Part shown: positions 16,651-25,388 of the stretch, in pieces
How positions within the stretch are numbered: position 1 is the first letter of the stretch
Layout: the number at the start of each line of letters is the position of its first letter
Notes under the pieces: generated by a model
Databases searched by the model: none
What the model saw: only the letters and a program-made list of their open reading frames with translations
Told to the model about the DNA's origin: nothing
Program-made: the position numbers and the translations under genes
Assembly: GCF_000010065.1 (NCBI RefSeq)
Contig: NC_006576.1
Span: 1,731,522-1,763,521 of the forward strand
Direction: 5' to 3'
DNA from: Synechococcus elongatus PCC 6301
GTDB taxonomy: Bacteria > Cyanobacteriota > Cyanobacteriia > Synechococcales > Synechococcaceae
DNA length: 32,000 nucleotides

Positions 16651-16957
16651 GGGGCTTATCCGAGGAGCAATACGCCCCTCATTGTAGGCAGAGTTGGCGA
16701 TCGCAACAGTTCAGGGACCTGATCAGAGATTGATGAAAATCATAAATTTAGGAATGATGACCTGACAGAACAGCCTTAGTTCTTATTTATTTAATAATCC
16801 TGAAGACTGGCAGCAAAGCTTCATTGAGACTTGACCTAGCGCTTTGGTAAACGCCGTGTTTGAACAAGGTTTGTATCCCGTGTAGCTAGTTACGGATCAG
16901 GTTGACTAAAGTCCGGCAGAATAGAATTAGATTTAAGAGAAGAGGGCCAGACGGTCT

Positions 16958-18538
16958 ATGGCTCGACGATGGGTCCACAAAAAACGCAACAGCAGCGATC
17001 GCGGCTATATCCTAGGCATCGTAATTGTCCTTGCCTTAGTTCTAGGGGTTAGTGTCGCTGCCCTAGCGCTCCGGAGTGCTGGTGAAAAAGCTGGGTCGAG
17101 CCAGCGGAATAGTGTTGATCTGAGCCTTTCAGCAGCAGAAATCGGTCAAGACCGCCTCTTTGCTAATCTCAATGGAGTTTTTGGACCTTATGCCTCAGCG
17201 GCGTTCCCTGATACAACGACAGGAGTTGCAACGACCGCAACTCGTTCTTGGGCACAACTCAGAACAGTTCTGACTTCGGGAGGGACAGCTAACGCTAATC
17301 CCTGCTCAACTCCAACTCCAGACTTTAATATCCTCACGACAGTTGGAACGAGTACTTTAGGAAATAGTGGTCAGCTGAGTTGGCAGTTGGTTAGCTATAA
17401 GCCTCAGGCTAACAATACAGCCCGGGTCGTCATGCGGGGTTTCCAAGGTACAAGTAGCTCAAACATACGAACAGAAGTTGAGCGAACCTACGCCACACGT
17501 CGAGTAACAGCCTTTAATACTGCTTCTACGTTTCCTGCACTGCTGACGGGCAGTGTGACACTAGGGAACAACGATGTAATTTCTGTCGTAGATCCAAATA
17601 CAGGACAATCTGTTTGTAACGCTAATGTTTACTGTCTAACTTGTACCGGTATTAATAATTTTGGCCAGAACCCTCAAAGTGTTGTTGATGGTGACTTGGT
17701 TTATCGTGCAACAACACCCGACGCCGATGGGAACTCTCTACTAAGTAATGGCATTGACTGGAATCAGAATACTAATTTTCCAGCTCCTAAGGTATGGCCA
17801 GGTTATCCAACAATCCCTATTCCTTTTTCTGCAGTAACTAACTTGCAAATTGCAGCTCTTTTTGCGGCACCTTCTTCTACTCTAAATCCTGGGTTCTACA
17901 ATGACTTAGGGGGTAGGCTAAGCCCAAGTAACCCGCTAGATTTACGGCTGAATCCAGATATCACAGGAAGTATCACTCTTCCGCGCTCAACTGATGTTAT
18001 TGGAGCAAATGGAGCCTACAACTATTTAGTCCGGGATGTAACAACCAACGGTAATGAGTTTATTCGCGTCAATACGCCTGGCTGCGAAGGTGTAACCCCC
18101 GTCCCAACTTCAACCTGTAAGCCAGTTTATCTATATGTCGTGGGTGACGTGAATGCTGATTTCTTGCATACAAACTCGCCCACTGGGACTACAACGGTTA
18201 ATGAGCCGGAAGACTTTGTGATTTTTGGTCGGCCTGGTGACTACACTGCCTCTGGCATTGATCAGACCATTACTATCAATGGTGGCTCGCGAGTAACCAG
18301 TGCTTTAGTGGTCGCTCCCCGCGCACGAGTAGGCGTCAACGGGGGGTCTAACAACCCAGACTTTTACGGTGCTGTCTGGTCAAAGGAATGGAATGGCTCT
18401 AGTAGTAATAACGTTGAGATTGTTGTTCCCCTCGACATTGCTGAGAGAGCAAGAGAATTCTACAATTCACCCCGTCCAACGGTCCTTCGCCTGAACTTCC
18501 TAGATATTTGGAGAGCAGGGGGTACGTTTAATCCATGA
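16958..18538 (+). CDS. Large PilX_N-like pilus protein, module A (526 aa)
   Basis: The basic N-terminus is followed by G|YILGIVIVLALVLGV, a pilin-like hydrophobic helix without Glu+5, as in the PilX_N family. Six Cys are conserved with the paralogue at 20096. The C-terminal region (VYLYVVGDV...ITINGGSRVTSALVVAPRARVGVNGGSNNPDFYGAVW) suggests repetitive beta-strands. Confidence 0.7.
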   Translation: MARRWVHKKRNSSDRGYILGIVIVLALVLGVSVAALALRSAGEKAGSSQRNSVDLSLSAAEIGQDRLFANLNGVFGPYASAAFPDTTTGVATTATRSWAQLRTVLTSGGTANANPCSTPTPDFNILTTVGTSTLGNSGQLSWQLVSYKPQANNTARVVMRGFQGTSSSNIRTEVERTYATRRVTAFNTASTFPALLTGSVTLGNNDVISVVDPNTGQSVCNANVYCLTCTGINNFGQNPQSVVDGDLVYRATTPDADGNSLLSNGIDWNQNTNFPAPKVWPGYPTIPIPFSAVTNLQIAALFAAPSSTLNPGFYNDLGGRLSPSNPLDLRLNPDITGSITLPRSTDVIGANGAYNYLVRDVTTNGNEFIRVNTPGCEGVTPVPTSTCKPVYLYVVGDVNADFLHTNSPTGTTTVNEPEDFVIFGRPGDYTASGIDQTITINGGSRVTSALVVAPRARVGVNGGSNNPDFYGAVWSKEWNGSSSNNVEIVVPLDIAERAREFYNSPRPTVLRLNFLDIWRAGGTFNP

Positions 18539-19128
18539 AGAGAATTCATAAACGATCGCGCCGGTCGCAGTTAGGCTTCTCACTGGTCGAGATCCTAGTC
18601 GCTGCTATTCTGACTGTCCTCTTAGCTCAAGCAACTGCGGCTGCTTTAAGAATTTCAGTCCAAACTCAAAATCGGGCCAGCACTGAAAACTCTTTTGAAA
18701 ATGCCATTGTTGCTGATTTAGAGCAAGTTAGAGCTATCAATCGAAATCTTTGCCGTAATCCTAACTTTGATCGCACTGCAACAACTTCTCCTAACAACCT
18801 GAGCTATGGTCCTTTTGGTGACTGTGCTGGAACTATCTTTCAGGAAAGATGCCGGGCAACGGGCACCACACCCGGATTTGGTAATCTTCTCCAAGCGCAA
18901 GTCCCTAATTTTACGAGCCAGACTGTGATTGTGAATGGACAGACTTGGACTATATCTCGACAAACTCTTGTTCCCGATCGTCCTCTCAACTCAGGAGATG
19001 CCGGCTATGCAGAATCGAGTCAGTCAGTATTGAAGGTTAGATATGACTTGACTAGAGGAAGTACAACAATTGCACCGGCTTTTGTCACCGAGTTTGTTCC
19101 TGATGCAGTAGGCTCGTGTCAAGGATAA
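18535..19128 (+). CDS. Type IV minor pilin, PilV-like, module A (197 aa)
   Basis: Class III signal: MKRIHKRSRRSQLG|FSLVEILVAAILTVLLA, with Gly-1, Phe+1 and Glu+5. The start overlaps the upstream stop (ATGA). It has four Cys. Confidence 0.8.
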   Translation: MKRIHKRSRRSQLGFSLVEILVAAILTVLLAQATAAALRISVQTQNRASTENSFENAIVADLEQVRAINRNLCRNPNFDRTATTSPNNLSYGPFGDCAGTIFQERCRATGTTPGFGNLLQAQVPNFTSQTVIVNGQTWTISRQTLVPDRPLNSGDAGYAESSQSVLKVRYDLTRGSTTIAPAFVTEFVPDAVGSCQG

Positions 19129-19273
19129 GTTAATTAACCCTAGTATTAAACTTTCTACTAGATTAAAGGTTTGCCCTTTCTAGCATGTCCATAGCATTCG
19201 TTTAATTCATTCTTTCATCCTGAAACTCAGTAGTCAGTATGACTCGTAGCCTAGCAACAGGAGAACTATCGAG

Positions 19274-19966
19274 ATGAGTACGCAACGCCTCTTTTGGCGA
19301 TGGTTTTTACAGCGTCATGGTGAAGCTGGTATCACTCTAGTCGAGGTTCTAGTTGCGGGTATTATTGGCGTGTTGGTTGTTTTGGCGGGCGGTTATGCGT
19401 TAGTGACCAACCTCCGAGTCGATCGCGAACTGTCATCAGCCGCAATTCAACGCAATCTTCAAACGAGAGCTTTGGAGTACATCAGTAGTGAAGTCCGTCA
19501 AGCCAACTTAATCTACGCGCCGAATAACACACCGAACCTGTGCAGTAGCTATACGAGAGTCTTGGGGCTGCAAACAACGGTGAATGGTAGCAATCGCAAT
19601 ATTGTTTATGCGGTTGGCAATGCCAACAACCCATGGCGGGGCGATCGCGTGCTATATCGCTGTGGCCCGCCAATCGATACCTCCACTGGACGTTACAGCT
19701 CAGGTAGCGACGTTGAAGAAGTGATTTTGGATGGCTTGAGCAGCGCTACCCTGGTGGCTAATAGCAATGGATGTGGTGCTGTCCCGACGGCCTACGCTGT
19801 TAGCAGCAGCAATACAGCAGGCCTGCGTGCTTTTTTCCGTACTGCCAGTAACGTCGTGAACACTAATTCCGCACAAATTCTGCTGGGGATGCAAATTGAT
19901 CGAGGTATTCAAGGAAATGCAACGAGTTGTGCAAGCATTGTTGCTTCCAATCGTTCGACCCCTTGA
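19274..19966 (+). CDS. Type IV minor pilin, PilW-like, module A (230 aa)
   Basis: Class III signal ...HGEAG|ITLVEVLVAGIIGVLVV, with Ile+1 and Glu+5. AGGAG lies 8 nt upstream of the ATG. The PilW-like N-terminal region is LVTNLRVDRELSSAAIQRNLQTRALEYISSEVRQAN. Confidence 0.75.
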   Translation: MSTQRLFWRWFLQRHGEAGITLVEVLVAGIIGVLVVLAGGYALVTNLRVDRELSSAAIQRNLQTRALEYISSEVRQANLIYAPNNTPNLCSSYTRVLGLQTTVNGSNRNIVYAVGNANNPWRGDRVLYRCGPPIDTSTGRYSSGSDVEEVILDGLSSATLVANSNGCGAVPTAYAVSSSNTAGLRAFFRTASNVVNTNSAQILLGMQIDRGIQGNATSCASIVASNRSTP

Positions 19967-20095
19967 TAAATGAGTAATGCTAAGTATTTAGCGATTTTTG
20001 ATCGCCTAGAGAATCTAGTGAACTGTACTTGTCTACCGCTAGCAGCAAAAATTCACTAAGATTTGGGTATATTCGTCTCTGGTGCTTAGGCTGCA

Positions 20096-21583
20096 GTGAT
20101 GGTGAGACCTATCCAACTTGTGCGGGCGTGGTTGATCAGGCGATCGCCTAAGGCACGGTACCGTAAGCCCGGTGGGTACATTTTGGCGACCGTCATTGGT
20201 TTGAGCCTTATTTTGGCGGTTGGCATCACCTCAGTCAGCATCCGAGCTGCTGCCGAGCGAGCAGGTAGTTTGCAGACAACGACGATAAATCTTTCTCAAT
20301 CCGCAGCCGAAATTGGGATCGAGCGCTTGTATGCCGTTCTCAACAACGGACCTTATCAGTCATTAGCAAGCAAAAGATTTGATAGAGATTCAGACACAAC
20401 TACTTGGACAACAGAGATCAGTAATATCAACTCGGCAGCCAATCAGAACAGTAACAACGTAAGAGGGTGTGGTATTACCCCAGCAGTTACCACCCAGCAG
20501 CAGCTAAATGACTTGACAGCCGGGACTACAACAATTGCTTCTACTTCAAACAATATCTGGTGGAGACTGAAGAGCTATTCCCCACCGGATCTAACAACTA
20601 ATCCAAAAACCCCTGCAACTATCGTGATGCAAGGTGGAACAGGTACTAGCTCTGGTGATACCTCAGGTCGAAGAACCGAAATTGAGAAAAAGTTTTTCCC
20701 TGAGAATGGAACCCCCATTCTTCGCAATGCACTAGGAAATGCTGCACTCTTTGCCGGGTCAATTGACCTTGGCAACAATGATGTCCTCTCCAGTGATGCT
20801 ACTCAGGGCTGCGCCAACGTCTATTGCCGGGATTGCCAAACTGGGCAAGGTCCAAACAGTACTGTTGAAGGGGCCGTTATTACCTTGCCAGCTTCAGTTC
20901 CATTCCCGGAACCAAAAGTCTGGCCATCTTCTGGAGCAACCCAAGCGAATGGTTTCTACGACCGTAAAGGTCAAGCGCAACCTTTTGGAACTCCCCCACT
21001 CTTACGAGTTGCAGATTTTCCTAATACAGATGCCAATAAGTTTATCAACATTCGAGTTGATGATATTCCTGCCAATTTAAAAGTCATTAATGACAGTTGT
21101 GGGGGAGCTATCAGCACTCCTGATCGATTGCCTGTCAATACCAATTCCGGCTGTAAGCGAGTTGCAATTTACTTTGAAGGCAATATCACTGGACCTATTA
21201 CTCAACTTTATGCAGACCTTCCTACGGCTACCTTTCTTCCTTACCCAGAAAATCTAGTTCTTTATGGCTTGCCTTCCACTGCCACCGGCAATCAAAACAT
21301 TACCTTAAGTGGCAACAGTGACAAAATTCAAGGAGCAGTTATCGTAGCTCCCAAAGCCCGTGCTGGGATTAACGGTGGTCCGCCGAAAAGTCGTACTAAC
21401 CCAGATGTTTATGGGCCACTCTATGTGGGAATTTGGGATCGCTCTAACAGTAATAACGCAGAAATTGTCGTTCCTTATGATATGTTTGCCCGAATTGATG
21501 GCTTAATTCCCAATCTCAATGAGATCACGACTTTAGTTTCACTGCGGAGTGCAACATCATGGCAAAAGGGAGGCAATCTCTAG
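20096..21583 (+). CDS. Large PilX_N-like pilus protein, module B (495 aa), paralogue of 16958-18538
   Basis: G|YILATVIGLSLILAVG helix. Colinear similarity to the module A protein is visible along its length (LSQSAAEIGIERLY, W.L.SY.P, LGNNDV, ANVYC..C, FPEPKVWP, VAPKARAGINGG, SNNAEIVVP). The start is GTG 20096 or ATG 20099. Confidence 0.7.
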   Translation: MMVRPIQLVRAWLIRRSPKARYRKPGGYILATVIGLSLILAVGITSVSIRAAAERAGSLQTTTINLSQSAAEIGIERLYAVLNNGPYQSLASKRFDRDSDTTTWTTEISNINSAANQNSNNVRGCGITPAVTTQQQLNDLTAGTTTIASTSNNIWWRLKSYSPPDLTTNPKTPATIVMQGGTGTSSGDTSGRRTEIEKKFFPENGTPILRNALGNAALFAGSIDLGNNDVLSSDATQGCANVYCRDCQTGQGPNSTVEGAVITLPASVPFPEPKVWPSSGATQANGFYDRKGQAQPFGTPPLLRVADFPNTDANKFINIRVDDIPANLKVINDSCGGAISTPDRLPVNTNSGCKRVAIYFEGNITGPITQLYADLPTATFLPYPENLVLYGLPSTATGNQNITLSGNSDKIQGAVIVAPKARAGINGGPPKSRTNPDVYGPLYVGIWDRSNSNNAEIVVPYDMFARIDGLIPNLNEITTLVSLRSATSWQKGGNL

Positions 21584-22152
21584 TGGGATTGAGTTTTCTT
21601 ACCAAGCCTTACAAATCCCTTGGCCGGCGGCGTCGCTCTCAACGAGGCTTTAGCATAACTGAAGTTATCGTTGCTGCCATCCTGACCATTTTGATCGCTC
21701 AGGCAACAACTGCTGCTTTAGTGGTTAATGCTCGAACTCAGGGCACCTCTGTCGAAGAGTCGCAATTTCTGAGGATTGTTAACCAAGATGTTGAGCGAGT
21801 CCGAGATGTTGCTAGTGCACTGTGTAGAAGCTCAACTTCTCCCTTGAGCTACAACGGTTGCAATCCTCCAACTAATCCCAGCTTGAAACAACGCTGTGAC
21901 AGTACAAGTTCTAATGCTGGGCTGGCACAATTACTTTCAAGTAGCCTACCCGCTTTCTCTGACAATATATTTACAAGTAAAAATCGTTCGACTGTGACGA
22001 TCACTAGAACTTCCTCTATCCCGACTGTCCCGGGTGCCTCATCTTTCTCTGTGTTACGTCTGGCCTATACTTCATCTGGTCTATCACCGAATTTATCGTA
22101 TGTGACGGAAGTGGTGCCGGACGTCGTCGGTTGGTGCTCAACTGCCATTTAA
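21559..22152 (+). CDS. Type IV minor pilin, PilV-like, module B (197 aa)
   Basis: Class III signal ...RRRRSQRG|FSITEVIVAAILTILIA. The start is either ATG 21559 (25-nt overlap with the upstream gene) or GTG 21583 (overlapping its TAG). It has four Cys in the same order as the module A paralogue, and the C-terminus YVTEVVPDVVGWC compares with FVTEFVPDAVGSC. Confidence 0.8.
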   Translation: MAKGRQSLVGLSFLTKPYKSLGRRRRSQRGFSITEVIVAAILTILIAQATTAALVVNARTQGTSVEESQFLRIVNQDVERVRDVASALCRSSTSPLSYNGCNPPTNPSLKQRCDSTSSNAGLAQLLSSSLPAFSDNIFTSKNRSTVTITRTSSIPTVPGASSFSVLRLAYTSSGLSPNLSYVTEVVPDVVGWCSTAI

Positions 22153-22194
22153 AAACCTTCATTCAACTGATCACTAGTTTTTACAGGCATATCC

Positions 22195-23427
22195 ATGAAG
22201 AGCGATAACTTAAGTGCCTTGCTAAGAATCTATTGGGCTCTAGTACCCAAGGATGAAGCGCGATCGCAGCAAGGGTTTACGATTACCGAGTTATTGGTCG
22301 CCAGTACCATTGGTATCATTGTGATTTTGGGCGGAGGCTATCTGCTTAAGACTAATCTCGATGTCGATCGTGTTAGCTCTACCAACTCAGCTCAAAGGAA
22401 TATTCAAAATCGAGCCTTAGATTTTATTAGTAATGAAATTAGGCGGGCCAATGCTGTTGTGAGTTCAAGCTCTCGTTCCTGTAACGGAGTAACGCCAGTC
22501 CTCAGTATTCGAGTACCTGATCCGAGCAACTCTACGAGCACTTCCGCAGTCAGAATTATCGACTACGCCGTTGCTACTCCAGCTGCTCCTTGGCAAACGA
22601 CTAGTAATGCTCGGGCGATTTATCGATGTGGCCCAGAGATTAACAGTTCTGGTCAATATGATTTCACTTCTTCCACAACCGTGACTGACCTGCTCGTTGA
22701 TCGAGTTGCAAATGCTAACCCTACGGCAAGCGGTGTTTGTAGCAATCTTAATGCCAATGCAATTACTTCACCTTTTTCGGGCTCAGCAACAACTAGTGGA
22801 ACAAACGGTTTAGTTGTTCGCTACGAAGCAAGTGATCCGCGATCGGCTCAAGTCTTGATTGCCTTCTTGCGAAACGTAGGGAATGGAGGTTCTCCAGGTA
22901 CCGACTGCGTCACGAATATTGTTGCTGCTCGCGCGATTGATCCTGCCAATATTGCGTCTAGCCCATCGCCTAGCCCTACGCCGACACCCACGCCTACGCC
23001 GAGCCCATCTCCTACTCCGTCACCTAGCCCTACGCCGACACCCACGCCTACGCCGAGCCCATCTCCCACTCCGTCACCTAGCCCTACGCCGACACCCACG
23101 CCCACGCCAAGCCCATCACCTGCGCCGACTCCCGTTTCTATCTCAATTGCCTCAATTTCTGGTGGAGGTAATAACTCAACTGTTGGGCTTAACCTTGGTA
23201 GCCTTAGTTTGCTCGCAGGTGTAACCGGTTTCAGGATTTTTGGTTGCACACAAAACAATAGTACCTGTACACCTTCCACGGGCGGTACGCCGACCTTAAC
23301 TACTTCATCCACTACCCCTACTATTCCAAATATCGACTTGCAAGGTAATAGGAGAGCTTGTTTTACTGCTCAAGCAGTTGGACCTCTCAATATTGTTTTA
23401 GGAACTTCTACTGTGTGCACAAATTAA
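22195..23427 (+). CDS. PilW-like minor pilin, module B, with a Pro/Ser/Thr repeat linker and an extra C-terminal domain (410 aa)
   Basis: Class III signal ...EARSQQG|[18 protein letters not shown]. The first ~250 aa are colinear with the 230-aa module A protein. These are followed by about 58 aa of (S/T)P repeats and a ~95-aa Ser/Thr/Gly/Asn-rich domain with four Cys. Confidence 0.8.
22960..23135 (+). repeat. In-frame 54-bp tandem repeat, about 3.2 copies, encoding [18 protein letters not shown] units
   Basis: Unit starts (AGCCCATC...) fall at 22960 (a 42-nt short copy), 23002, 23056 and 23110 (partial, diverging). Copies 2 and 3 differ at only a few bases by eye. Confidence 0.9.
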
Positions 23428-23438
23428 GTTCTATTCTT

Positions 23439-24317
23439 GTGAATTTTGACTTGAAGCCTCTAAATTTGATAAAAACTATTTATGATTTCAGTCGACAAGA
23501 GGTTCTTTTAACTGAAACTGAGTTGTTTCAGTTACTCCAAAGCTTTGAGGACTGTCCACCTCGTGAGAGTCTACAAAGTTCCTCTTTTCAGTGGAGGAAC
23601 CTGTTGTTTTCTCAGGTGTCAGCGGGTAATACGACTTACTGGTATTCCCAACAAATACCGATTCAAATCAATTCAAATTTAAGTGGTATTGCCAACCATC
23701 TAGCTGTAGAGTCTTCAACAGGGAAGCCAGATATTTTATATTGGCGAATCCTTGATTTTTTAAGCCCTGAAAAGCTACAACAGCTTTGGAATTATTTACT
23801 AACTGCCCGATCGCAATTTAATCCGGCTCACAACTCCGCAGGTTTGAATAACTATCGACAATCTCTTTTTACTGCTCCTCCTCCTGAAATTTATTCCGAG
23901 ATCAGTGAAAAGATTTTAGGTGCTTTGATACCAATTGCCGATGAGCTGCCCAATTCCTCACAAGAAATTGGCGAGATAGAGATGCAAATAACAGCTCACA
24001 ACGATGGTCATTATTACAAAATTCATAATGATAACGGCAGTCCTGATACAGCTACACGTTTTCTCACTTACGTTTACTACTTCTATCGACAACCCAAACC
24101 ATTTACTGGTGGCGAGCTGCGACTGTATGAACTTGCTATCAAAGATGGCTTTTACGTTGCAGGCGATCGCTATCAAGACATTGAACCGCTACACAATAGC
24201 CTGATTGTTTTCCCAAGCCACTACATGCACGAAGTTCTACCGATTCGATGTCCTTCTCAGCGATTTGAGGATAGCCGCTTTACAGTTAATGGTTGGATTC
24301 GAGTTGCTATTGACTGA
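23439..24317 (+). CDS. 2OG-Fe(II) oxygenase, prolyl-4-hydroxylase-like fold, with an uncharacterised N-terminal half
   Basis: The C-terminal half carries the double-stranded beta-helix signature: KIHNDN (HxD), RFLTYVYYFY, GGELRLYE, distal His in SHYMHEVLPI, and RFTVNGWI (2OG-binding Arg). The start is uncertain: TTG 23358 (70-nt overlap with the upstream gene), GTG 23439 or TTG 23451. The gene is very AT-rich. Confidence 0.75.
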   Translation: MNFDLKPLNLIKTIYDFSRQEVLLTETELFQLLQSFEDCPPRESLQSSSFQWRNLLFSQVSAGNTTYWYSQQIPIQINSNLSGIANHLAVESSTGKPDILYWRILDFLSPEKLQQLWNYLLTARSQFNPAHNSAGLNNYRQSLFTAPPPEIYSEISEKILGALIPIADELPNSSQEIGEIEMQITAHNDGHYYKIHNDNGSPDTATRFLTYVYYFYRQPKPFTGGELRLYELAIKDGFYVAGDRYQDIEPLHNSLIVFPSHYMHEVLPIRCPSQRFEDSRFTVNGWIRVAID

Positions 24318-24321
24318 TTTT

Positions 24322-24888
24322 CTAGCTTGAAGTTCGACAGCTACCGCTTTGCACAGTACCAGTTCTGACTAGCCCTAGGGGTCGTGCAAGAACGACACAG
24401 CGTTGTACTGGCGTTAATGTACTACTCAAGCGAATTTCTTGGGTTGCATTACCTGTCCAGTAAACATTGCCGCTGGGATATGCGAGTACGTTTGAACTTA
24501 GATTCTGAGCTACTGTGATTTGATTTCTAGCAAAGCTACGACTACGTAAAAGACAATTCCCCGTGGGTGCTGCTGTTGTATCACGGTTAATTCCACCAGC
24601 AACAAGATCAGTGGCTTTCAAGGTACAGGTTCGATTTAACCGCTGAGCTTCACGTTGCATCTCTAGAATGGCTGACTGTACTTCTGAAGTAGCTTGATCT
24701 AGCTCTTGCTGACCCAAAAAACCAGCCACGCTAGGTCCTGCGATCGCGGCTAGAATCCCTGCCACAATTAAAACGACTAAGATCTCAGTGATTGTAAAAC
24801 CTTGCGATCGCACTGCTCGGCGTAAATGAGCATAAAGTAAACGCTGCTCTAAGACGAGTTTTAATCGTGACATTGCTAACCTTTCCAT
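24322..24888 (-). CDS. Type IV minor pilin, FimT/FimU/GspH-like (188 aa)
   Basis: Class III signal ...RRAVRSQG|FTITEILVVLIVAGILAAIAGPSVAGFL, followed by QQELDQATSEVQSAILEMQREAQRLNRTCTL, typical of the GspH/FimT family. The start is ATG 24888 or 24873. Confidence 0.8.
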   Translation of the reverse strand: MERLAMSRLKLVLEQRLLYAHLRRAVRSQGFTITEILVVLIVAGILAAIAGPSVAGFLGQQELDQATSEVQSAILEMQREAQRLNRTCTLKATDLVAGGINRDTTAAPTGNCLLRSRSFARNQITVAQNLSSNVLAYPSGNVYWTGNATQEIRLSSTLTPVQRCVVLARPLGLVRTGTVQSGSCRTSS

Positions 24889-25388
24889 CCCAACGCGATC
24901 GCAGCTTACCTCTATTCTCGCAAACGATGCAGGGATTAGCTTGCCCTAGGCGAGCGATCTTGTGCCAAAGACCGATCGCCTGGCCTTTCCTGATCAATAC
25001 TCAGTGACTCTCTAACTATAGTCAGCGCATGATCAACAGAGGCTACCTAGTAAAAAAGATAGGACTGGTGTAGTCGAATAAGGATCAGCTTATCTTCAAC
25101 AACAACTCACTACGCTCAAACATTGCTTAGCTACTCTCTGAGACTGTCGCGATCGCCTTCAACCCCTGCCAGAGTAGTACTGCCAATGTCTGAATTCTTG
25201 TTGTGTCTACCGCTTCTCCTGCGCAGAGAGTAGATCAGTGATCGACCCCAAGAACTCTCTGGTATTCCAAAGAAACCAGTAATCTCCTATCCATTAGTGA
25301 TAGCGATCGCTGTTGGGGCGGATTTCTCGCCTGCCAGCATCAAGGCCCGAGTGTCAGAGTAGAAGGAGAACCCTTCAGAGGCAGACTG

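Follow-up and report, generated by a model that had tools for sequence, protein, structure and literature searches.

The window is a 32,000-nt stretch of the Synechococcus elongatus PCC 6301 genome, and between positions 16958 and 23427 its + strand carries a three-gene minor-pilin (pilus-tip) module in two tandem copies that diverged long ago. Copy 1 begins with rntA (16958–18538), the orthologue of Synpcc7942_2486, which encodes a large PilX-type minor pilin; it is followed by rntB (Synpcc7942_2485; 18535–19128) for a PilV-type and Synpcc7942_2484 (19274–19966) for a PilW-like minor pilin. Beyond a 129-nt spacer (19967–20095), copy 2 is made of Synpcc7942_2483 (20099–21583, PilX-type), Synpcc7942_2482 (21559–22152, PilV-type) and Synpcc7942_2481 (22195–23427, PilW-like). 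The next gene on the same strand, Synpcc7942_2480 (23451–24317), encodes a 2OG-Fe(II) oxygenase of the prolyl-4-hydroxylase-like type (P4H-like; PF13640, E 2e-18), and pilA2 (Synpcc7942_2479; 24322–24888, - strand), for a FimT/GspH-like minor pilin, is convergent with both copies. Two starts are in play for 2482 (ATG 21559 or GTG 21583; gene calls of both 189 and 197 aa exist) and for 2480 (TTG 23451 or GTG 23439, checked against a relative). The locus tags are fixed by a published N-terminal peptide of Synpcc7942_2483, taken from a set of signal peptides picked from proteins detected outside cells, which matches exactly from ATG 20099; copy 1 is therefore rntA(2486)-rntB(2485)-2484 and copy 2 is 2483-2482-2481. 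The annotation order (pilA2, prolyl 4-hydroxylase, hypotheticals, rntB, rntA, miaA as 2490) agrees with this mapping. The spacer probably marks the boundary of two transcription units, and the gene groups that flank it differ in expression class.

Tandem three-gene copies with mirrored order and strand had been proposed from the letters of the DNA, and pairwise BLASTP bears this out. The PilX-type frames (16958–18538 and 20096–21583) share 34% identity over 531 columns (E 1e-53), the PilV-type genes 38% over 192 columns (E 2e-32) and the PilW-like genes 32% over 245 columns (E 8e-24), all three pairs being aligned across their whole shared length with identical gene order and strand. The original prediction had put the identity at roughly one third, close to these values, and the open reading frames and peptide strings that it quoted are all present. 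It was also right that the first two genes overlap by stop and start codons in both copies: copy 1 has an ATGA at 18535–18538, and in copy 2 the PilX stop TAG (21581–21583) overlaps the PilV gene by 25 nt from ATG 21559 or by 1 nt from GTG 21583. At the DNA level nothing is alignable between the copies beyond one 41-nt stretch at 80%, which indicates that the divergence is old and that no recent gene conversion has occurred. Relative to 2484, 2481 has two additions: an (S/T)P linker, for which a 54-nt tandem repeat (22969–23121) codes, and a C-terminal domain (~95 aa).

That these genes are pilin-like is supported by their class III leader motifs, each followed by a hydrophobic stretch (a slash marks the leader end): G/FSLVE in RntB, G/ITLVE in 2484, G/FSITE in 2482, G/FTITE in both 2481 and PilA2, DRG/YILGI in RntA and PGG/YILAT in 2483. 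The V, W and FimT types have Glu5, which both large X-type proteins lack. Type IV pilins and pseudopilins have a short, basic leader that ends in Gly, a hydrophobic residue at +1, Glu at +5 except in K/X-type subunits, and a hydrophobic helix (~20 residues), and the proteins of this locus show this pattern. The profile searches that were suggested as a check gave a divided result. For N_methyl (PF07963/TIGR02532, cut-off 21.2 bits), PilA2 scored above the cut-off (22.4 bits), RntB (18.6), 2482 (15.9) and 2481 (20.5) fell below it, and 2484, RntA and 2483 had no match; the other family profiles also stayed under their cut-offs. RntA matched DUF7305 at 16.1 bits (cut-off 27) and 2483 did not match it, while the profile relatives of the X proteins bear PilX_N or DUF7305 (PF23981) names. 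The TIGR02523 PilV profile reached only E 0.055, and Pfam PilW (PF16074) gave no match to 2484, to 2481 or even to the named PilW (2591). PilA2 matched PF12019 GspH at E 0.0025 (18.8 bits, cut-off 21) and TIGR01708 at E 8e-8 (32.5 bits, cut-off 80), and PilA3 showed a similarly weak GspH match.

AF2 models of moderate confidence were available for one protein of each copy, and both show a pilin fold with a long N-terminal helix and an antiparallel beta sheet: helix 22–76 and then 8 strands in 2484 (pLDDT 73), and helix 28–82 followed by beta structure in 2483 (pLDDT 70.7). Fold searches with the two models returned no significant PDB match; the 2484 search placed T. thermophilus TTHA1219 (5g23), a PilW-family fold with an extended alpha-beta loop, at rank 8 (E 0.42, TM 0.26–0.31). 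Members of the PilX-Com subfamily lack Glu5 and bear a large beta-solenoid within the pilin fold; the C-terminal half of the 2483 model is all-beta. ComZ of Thermus thermophilus is a large tip pilin that has a role in competence and whose pilin fold is interrupted by a beta-solenoid (cited in Schuergers et al., 2026; PMC13759059), and the X-type protein is likewise large and may carry such an insertion. Foldseek with the 2483 model did not return ComZ, its best PDB match being the fungal ice-binding beta-solenoid 5b5h (E 0.053, probability 0.80).

The FimU-PilV-PilW-PilX proteins (with PilY1) of Pseudomonas aeruginosa and GspH-I-J-K of type II secretion form four-protein tip or priming complexes whose K/X subunit lacks Glu5. 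The present locus shares with them X-type proteins without Glu5, and its FimT/GspH-like protein has the weak GspH match given above, but it differs in the gene order X-V-W, the convergent H-type gene, a PilX of ~500 aa with a beta-rich insertion, the absence of PilY1 and profile scores under the family cut-offs. Its protein classes are the same as those of the cyanobacterial Com-type sets (PilX-Com/PilV-Com/PilW/FimT; Synechocystis PilA5-8 with PilX, Thermosynechococcus tll2333-35; Schuergers et al., 2026; PMC13759059), whereas here two X-V-W sets stand head to tail with a single adjacent FimT-type gene and a further PilW/FimT pair elsewhere. The same authors annotated RntA/RntB/PilW/PilA3 as a Com priming complex with RntB, like Synechocystis PilA5, as a member of the PilV-Com subfamily, to which 2482 belongs by its similarity to RntB and by the position of each PilV gene directly downstream of, and overlapping, its PilX gene. 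They also reported that S. elongatus has two sets of the Com type and none of the EPS type; both the two-set arrangement and the proposal that the species has two priming complexes are already published there (PMC13759059).

The further pair, pilA3 and pilW, lies ~108 kb from the locus and consists of paralogues of pilA2 (35% identity between PilA2 and PilA3) and of 2484 and 2481 (33% identity, E 2e-24, and 41% identity, E 3e-26, to PilW(2591), respectively). The genome counts three PilW and two FimT-like paralogues and only two PilX and two PilV. The transposon screen that the original prediction credited with naming pilA3, pilW, rntA and rntB does exist (Taton et al., 2020; PMC7125226); copy 1 is the rntA-rntB locus of S. 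elongatus PCC 7942 described there. In the available text of that study rntA and rntB are called enigmatic, 2483-2481 are not described as a paralogous copy, and 2481, 2482 and 2484 appear only among pilin-like candidates. The accompanying idea that the four competence genes would be one module plus the FimT-like gene was not borne out: of the four, copy 1 contains just rntA and rntB, PilW and PilA3, which are also required for transformation, are encoded at the distant site, and 2484 and the pilA2 of the window are dispensable. The transformation fitness values given there were -2.7 for rntA, -2.3 for rntB and +0.32 for 2484 in copy 1, -0.7 for 2483, 0.0 for 2482 and -0.35 for 2481 in copy 2, and +0.97 for pilA2 (PMC7125226).

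The two copies differ in regulation and phenotype in published data. By the excerpted data of Taton et al. (PMC7125226), copy 1 belongs to circadian class 1, with a peak at 11–12.4 h (dusk) and a shade response of +1.4 to +1.8 log2, whereas copy 2 shows no circadian pattern and shade alters it by +0.2 to +0.36; strains deleted for rntA/rntB remain piliated. RNA-seq of PilB::Tn5 placed 2480-2483 in down groups (DF5/O-A4), 2480 sharing the groups of 2481-2483, and put rntB and rntA among the up genes of group O-A1. For 2484 the only groups given are DF3/OT3. Expression of 2482 is also down in sigF1 and pilB mutants. Cofitness of 0.95–0.99 with pilBCMNOQ, ogt and sigF1 was reported for rntA, rntB, 2484 and pilA2, with the same association for comFB; pilA3, pilW and the copy 2 genes are absent from those lists. 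Since the genes cofit with the pilus are those of copy 1 and pilA2 and not those of copy 2, copy 1 may have a part in general pilus functions as well as in competence. In a pooled RB-TnSeq screen, rntA, rntB and 2484 were ‘consistent biofilm formers’ and pilA2 is listed as ‘represses biofilm’; on biofilm validation, single rntA, rntB and 2484 mutants were WT-like. Single 2480 and 2483 mutants were likewise WT-like, the 2482 knockout was planktonic and the 2481 mutant was a sporadic biofilm former. The statement that the other module is the uncharacterised one was essentially right, copy 2 having no assigned role.

Taken together, the locus very probably comprises two paralogous Com-type core minor-pilin sets that serve a single type IVa pilus machine. 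Each set would combine a large PilX-type cap (without Glu5 and with an all-beta C-terminal half), a PilV-type and a PilW-type pilin, and, joined by a FimT/GspH-type pilin (PilA2 from this locus or PilA3 from the distant one), it would form its own tip complex that primes polymerisation and sets the role of the filament, an association on which the published genetic and cofitness data bear. Copy 1 is the rntA-rntB-2484 operon, dusk-peaking, RpaA-dependent and shade-induced, whose RntA and RntB, essential for natural transformation, would work with the distantly encoded PilW and PilA3. Copy 2, co-regulated with the P4H-like 2480, is a separate regulatory unit dispensable for transformation; its most likely task is to prime pili of another class, one that does not serve competence. 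A split between DNA uptake and adhesion is plausible, with a hypothetical adhesion role for copy 2. Whether a single pilus machine takes up DNA, adheres, moves the cell or secretes is determined by its minor pilins. As a main model organism and chassis, S. elongatus owes its transformability to the rntA and rntB found here, and next to them sits a conserved, selected paralogous set to which no role has been assigned.

An old duplication that has been kept, as the original prediction held, fits the conservation of the locus. The same 8-gene locus occurs in two Logan assemblies (L016 and L017), the more distant L019 retains the order 2484-2483-2482-2481, and neither copy has decayed in related lineages, where purifying selection acts on both, dN/dS being 0.03–0.14 for every gene and 0.07–0.12 for copy 2. 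Separate acquisition of the two copies as foreign cassettes, instead of duplication in situ, is very improbable, even though the block looks like a low-GC, HIP1-poor island (GC 0.44–0.49 against ~0.57 in the flanks, GC3 0.35–0.48 against 0.57, and 4 HIP1 sites in ~7.2 kb, or ~0.55 per kb, where the whole genome averages 2.7 per kb) and the syntenic site of the sister species (G001) holds remnants only, its PilX genes being at other loci and one of them in another subclade. Against it, all three gene pairs are colinear, mobility genes are absent from the locus, and in a tree of 147 relatives (from a search of 1.84 billion representatives) both PilX copies group in one small clade, in which the RntA and X2 (2483) clades are mutual closest full-length relatives (UFBoot 91 / SH-aLRT 89) or form a trichotomy with a long-branch G001 protein. 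Among 121 sampled cyanobacterial genomes, two tandem PilX matches at E <= 1e-8 were found in this genome only. It is also improbable that copy 2 is redundant, lacking a function of its own and priming the same pili as a back-up if copy 1 is absent. Mutant phenotypes of 2480-2483 are weak or none, pili are still made without rntAB according to the available part of Taton et al. (PMC7125226), and redundancy was raised for 2482 by the authors of the 2482-knockout study; however, the paralogues are only 32–38% identical, copy 2 alone has a P4H-like gene and, in its PilW-like protein, the (S/T)P linker and the additional C-terminal domain, the copies respond oppositely to PilB loss and differ in circadian class, and copy 2 is under the strong purifying selection noted above.

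A further alternative is possible but less likely than the main reading: RntA-RntB may be a shared PilX-PilV core that joins either 2484 and PilA2, for general and biofilm-suppressing pili, or PilW and PilA3, for competence at dusk, with copy 2 as a third, minor or conditional complex. The cofitness of rntA, rntB, 2484 and pilA2 with pilus genes, the biofilm classes of the pooled screen, the need of transformation for PilW and PilA3 but not for 2484 and pilA2 in the accessible data (PMC7125226) and the surplus of PilW and FimT-like paralogues over PilX and PilV all point this way. Nevertheless, the single rntA, rntB and 2484 mutants were WT-like on validation, the rntAB deletion strains keep their pili (PMC7125226, as far as available) and cofitness is correlative. 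A more elaborate form of such combinatorial tips, which is possible but rather unlikely, would have RntA-RntB re-used with 2484 and PilA2 from day to day or with PilW and PilA3 for DNA uptake at dusk, and copy 2 as a third tip with a stalked extra PilW domain, possibly hydroxylated by the P4H-like enzyme, and an opposite response to the status of the pilus machine. The presence of just two PilX-PilV pairs beside three PilW and two FimT paralogues, together with copy 2, turns the assembly of tip complexes and their exchange over the day into a testable question.

The best reading of the locus is that it holds two paralogous core minor-pilin sets of the Com type (Schuergers et al., 2026, PMC13759059) in two transcription units. 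Each set would be able to cap and prime a pilus on a common machine, copy 1 acting as the dusk or competence set and copy 2 as a constitutive one, whose PilW bears an additional stalked domain and which is co-regulated with a prolyl 4-hydroxylase (P4H)-like enzyme. Schuergers et al. already credit S. elongatus with two Com-type sets, annotate RntA/RntB/PilW/PilA3 as a priming complex and name RntB as a PilV-Com member, and the genes are already named or listed across several papers. Added here are explicit paralogy statistics, the positions of a third PilW and a second FimT paralogue, selection estimates, a tree and the decay of the locus in a sister species; these leave the kind of system unchanged.

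The six ORFs of the original prediction lie at the coordinates claimed and map to rntA (2486) through 2481 (numbers are Synpcc7942_ locus tags): copy 1 is rntA (window 16958-18538), rntB (2485; 18535-19128) and 2484 (19274-19966), and copy 2 is 2483 (20099-21583), 2482 (21559-22152) and 2481 (22195-23427). The N-terminal peptide of Synpcc7942_2483, printed in a paper whose signal peptides (that of 2483 included) were drawn from proteins detected outside cells, agrees letter for letter with the ORF from ATG 20099. This match and the published annotation order (pilA2 2479, prolyl 4-hydroxylase 2480, hypotheticals 2481-2484, rntB 2485, rntA 2486, miaA 2490) fix the locus tags of the remaining genes, among them pilA2 (24322-24888, minus strand). 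Proteins of other S. elongatus strains are one or two residues off those of the window; residue 321 of RntA (window 17918-17920) is Leu here and Val in a variant on 92 contigs (longest 2,695,906 bp), the sole difference between the two and probably a trivial strain polymorphism.

The homology of the two copies, seen by eye at the outset, holds under formal alignment, with all three protein pairs significant by BLASTP: the two large proteins, RntA and 2483 (34% identity over 531 columns, E 1e-53), the two 197-aa proteins, RntB and 2482 (38%, 192 columns, E 2e-32), and 2484 and 2481 (32%, 245 columns, E 8e-24). Gene order and strand are identical in both copies, and the predicted stop/start overlap of the first two genes is real in each (ATGA at 18535-18538 in copy 1; TAG 21581-21583 with ATG 21559 or GTG 21583 in copy 2). 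A direct-repeat search between the copies found a single surviving DNA match of 41 nt at 80%; the divergence is therefore old, as had been proposed, and recent gene conversion is ruled out. A consensus promoter and terminator scan of 16.3-25.4 kb gave counts no higher than those of shuffles and is thus silent on the operon boundary.

All of the proteins except the two large ones carry the prepilin motif Gly/hydrophobic-x-x-x-Glu followed by a hydrophobic helix; RntA and 2483 read G/YIL and lack Glu5, which is typical of a GspK/PilX-type cap subunit. Curated profiles matched weakly overall: N_methyl scores ran from 15.9 to 22.4 bits around a cut-off of 21.2, so that some proteins passed and others fell below, DUF7305 reached 16.1 (cut-off 27) and GspH 18.8 (cut-off 21), and the Pfam PilW model matched none of them, the named PilW included. 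A profile of RntA and 2483 found 147 relatives at E <= 0.001 among 1.84 billion representatives, those bearing a source name being PilX_N-domain or DUF7305-domain proteins of Thermosynechococcus. Word-based searches turned up only 3 close matches to 2484; with the PilX profile they turned up 9 (5 of the 9 with PF23981), so the AF2 alignments were shallow. In the resulting models, of moderate confidence (pLDDT 70.7 for 2483 and 73.2 for 2484), a long N-terminal helix leads into beta structure. Neither model returned a PDB match at E <= 0.001 in Foldseek: the best match of 2483 was an ice-binding beta-solenoid (E 0.053, not significant), with ComZ, GspK and PilX not among its returns, and for 2484 the T. 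thermophilus pilin TTHA1219 stood at rank 8 (not significant). These model-based matches echo the descriptions of Schuergers et al. (2026), which is no proof of membership. Searching PDB sequences gave no match to the PilX pair, and for PilA2 it gave matches confined to the N-terminal helix.

A genome motif scan combined with BLASTP and profile searches yielded two PilA1 genes, two PilX (RntA, 2483), two PilV (RntB, 2482), three PilW-like proteins (2484, 2481 and the named PilW) and two FimT/GspH-like proteins (PilA2 and PilA3, 35% identical). The pilA3-pilW locus lies at G000:C1:1641513-1642693 in the source genome, ~108 kb from rntA, so the suggestion that one module plus the neighboring FimT-like gene forms the competence set fails. 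PilW is closer to 2481 (41% identity) than to 2484 (33%), whose gene is next to rntB. As with rntA and rntB, there is an overlap between pilA3 and pilW, here of 4 nt (pilA3 end 1642178, pilW start 1642181).

In the (S/T)P linker (window 22969-23133), found only in the PilW-like protein of copy 2, the coding DNA of 2481 consists of 2.8 copies of a 54-nt repeat (94% matches). Linker length varies among relatives (410, 412 and 434 aa), and 2481 has an extra C-terminal domain of ~95 aa. Gene 2480 (window 23451-24317, or from 23439) begins 12-24 nt past the 2481 stop and encodes a P4H-like 2OG-Fe(II) oxygenase (PF13640, E 2e-18) with the same RNA-seq groups as 2481 (Simkovsky, 2022). Because of the linker, this adjacency and the common groups, 2480 is a candidate pilin prolyl hydroxylase.

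Published phenotypes bear on how the sets are used. In Taton et al. (2020, PMC7125226), transformation fitness was -2.7 for rntA, -2.3 for rntB, -2.7 for pilA3 and -2.2 for pilW, +0.3 for 2484 and +1.0 for pilA2, and -0.7 for 2483 (P 2e-4, not 'high confidence'), 0.0 for 2482 and -0.35 for 2481. There, copy 1 belongs to circadian class 1 (peaks 11-12.4 h; shade induction +1.4 to +1.8 log2), 2480-2483 show no circadian rhythm and a slight shade response, and strains lacking rntAB retain piliation. Genes 2480-2483 fall together in RNA-seq groups with lowered expression in PilB::Tn5, rntB and rntA fall in a group with raised expression there (O-A1), and 2484 appears under DF3/OT3 only (Simkovsky, 2022). 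A serious rival, or a refinement, has RntA-RntB re-used with two alternative PilW/FimT pairs, as the published datasets suggest, and it holds an appreciable though minority chance. The pooled RB-TnSeq screen lists rntA, rntB and 2484 as 'consistent biofilm formers', and the same study lists pilA2 as biofilm-repressing (Simkovsky, 2022); the cofitness lists for ogt and sigF1 include rntA, rntB, 2484 and pilA2 and leave out copy 2, pilA3 and pilW, and comFB reportedly shows cofitness with pilA2 and with the rntAB (2484-2486) operon. Mutants lacking only 2480 or one of 2483-2486 have a wild-type appearance, biofilm formation by the 2481 mutant is sporadic (Simkovsky, 2022) and the 2482 knockout is planktonic. 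That copy 2 is purely redundant is less likely, and indeed improbable: dN/dS against the Logan assemblies L016 and L017 is 0.03-0.14 for every gene, indicating purifying selection on both copies.

That the two copies came separately from foreign sources is also less likely, and very improbable. The pilin block (window 16700-25300) has a GC of ~0.46 (0.44-0.49) versus ~0.57 and a GC3 of 0.35-0.48 versus 0.57, with 4 HIP1 sites (GCGATCGC) in ~7.2 kb (~0.55 per kb; 2.7 per kb genome-wide), and no mobility genes were seen in it. PilX trees join the RntA and 2483 clades (UFBoot 91 / SH-aLRT 89); with both proteins of the sister species G001 included, these clades and one long-branch G001 protein form a trichotomy.

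The locus can be followed in relatives. It recurs with all eight genes in L016 and L017, where it lies between ndhO and psb28, with amino-acid identities of 95% (RntA), 89% (RntB) and 87% (2484) in copy 1, 84% (2483), 81% (2482) and 88% (2481) in copy 2, and 70% (2480), 81% (PilA2) and 98.8% (gyrB) elsewhere. The dN of copy 2 is ~1.2 to 4 times that of copy 1; dN/dS and the intact orthologues rule out copy 2 as pseudogenes. The order 2484-2483-2482-2481 is also preserved on L019, a contig further removed, with identities of 78%, 61%, 54% and 67%. In G001, with flanks 82-83% identical, the locus is decayed: the syntenic site (G001:C1:1616465-1619692), ~2.7 kb from the 2487 orthologue to the downstream flank, holds just two fragments, 186 aa of a PilX N-terminus and 84 aa of a FimT-like C-terminus. 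Intact G001 sets lie at two other loci, one an X-V-FimT-W operon whose PilX belongs to another subclade, the other an X-V pair beside pilD. Among 121 sampled cyanobacterial genomes, 13 match the PilX profile, the tandem pair occurring in this genome only. Absent from the window, an NTP_transf_2/HepT toxin-antitoxin-like pair lies between pilA2 and psb28 in the relatives (L016 13187-13883; L017 13131-13827).
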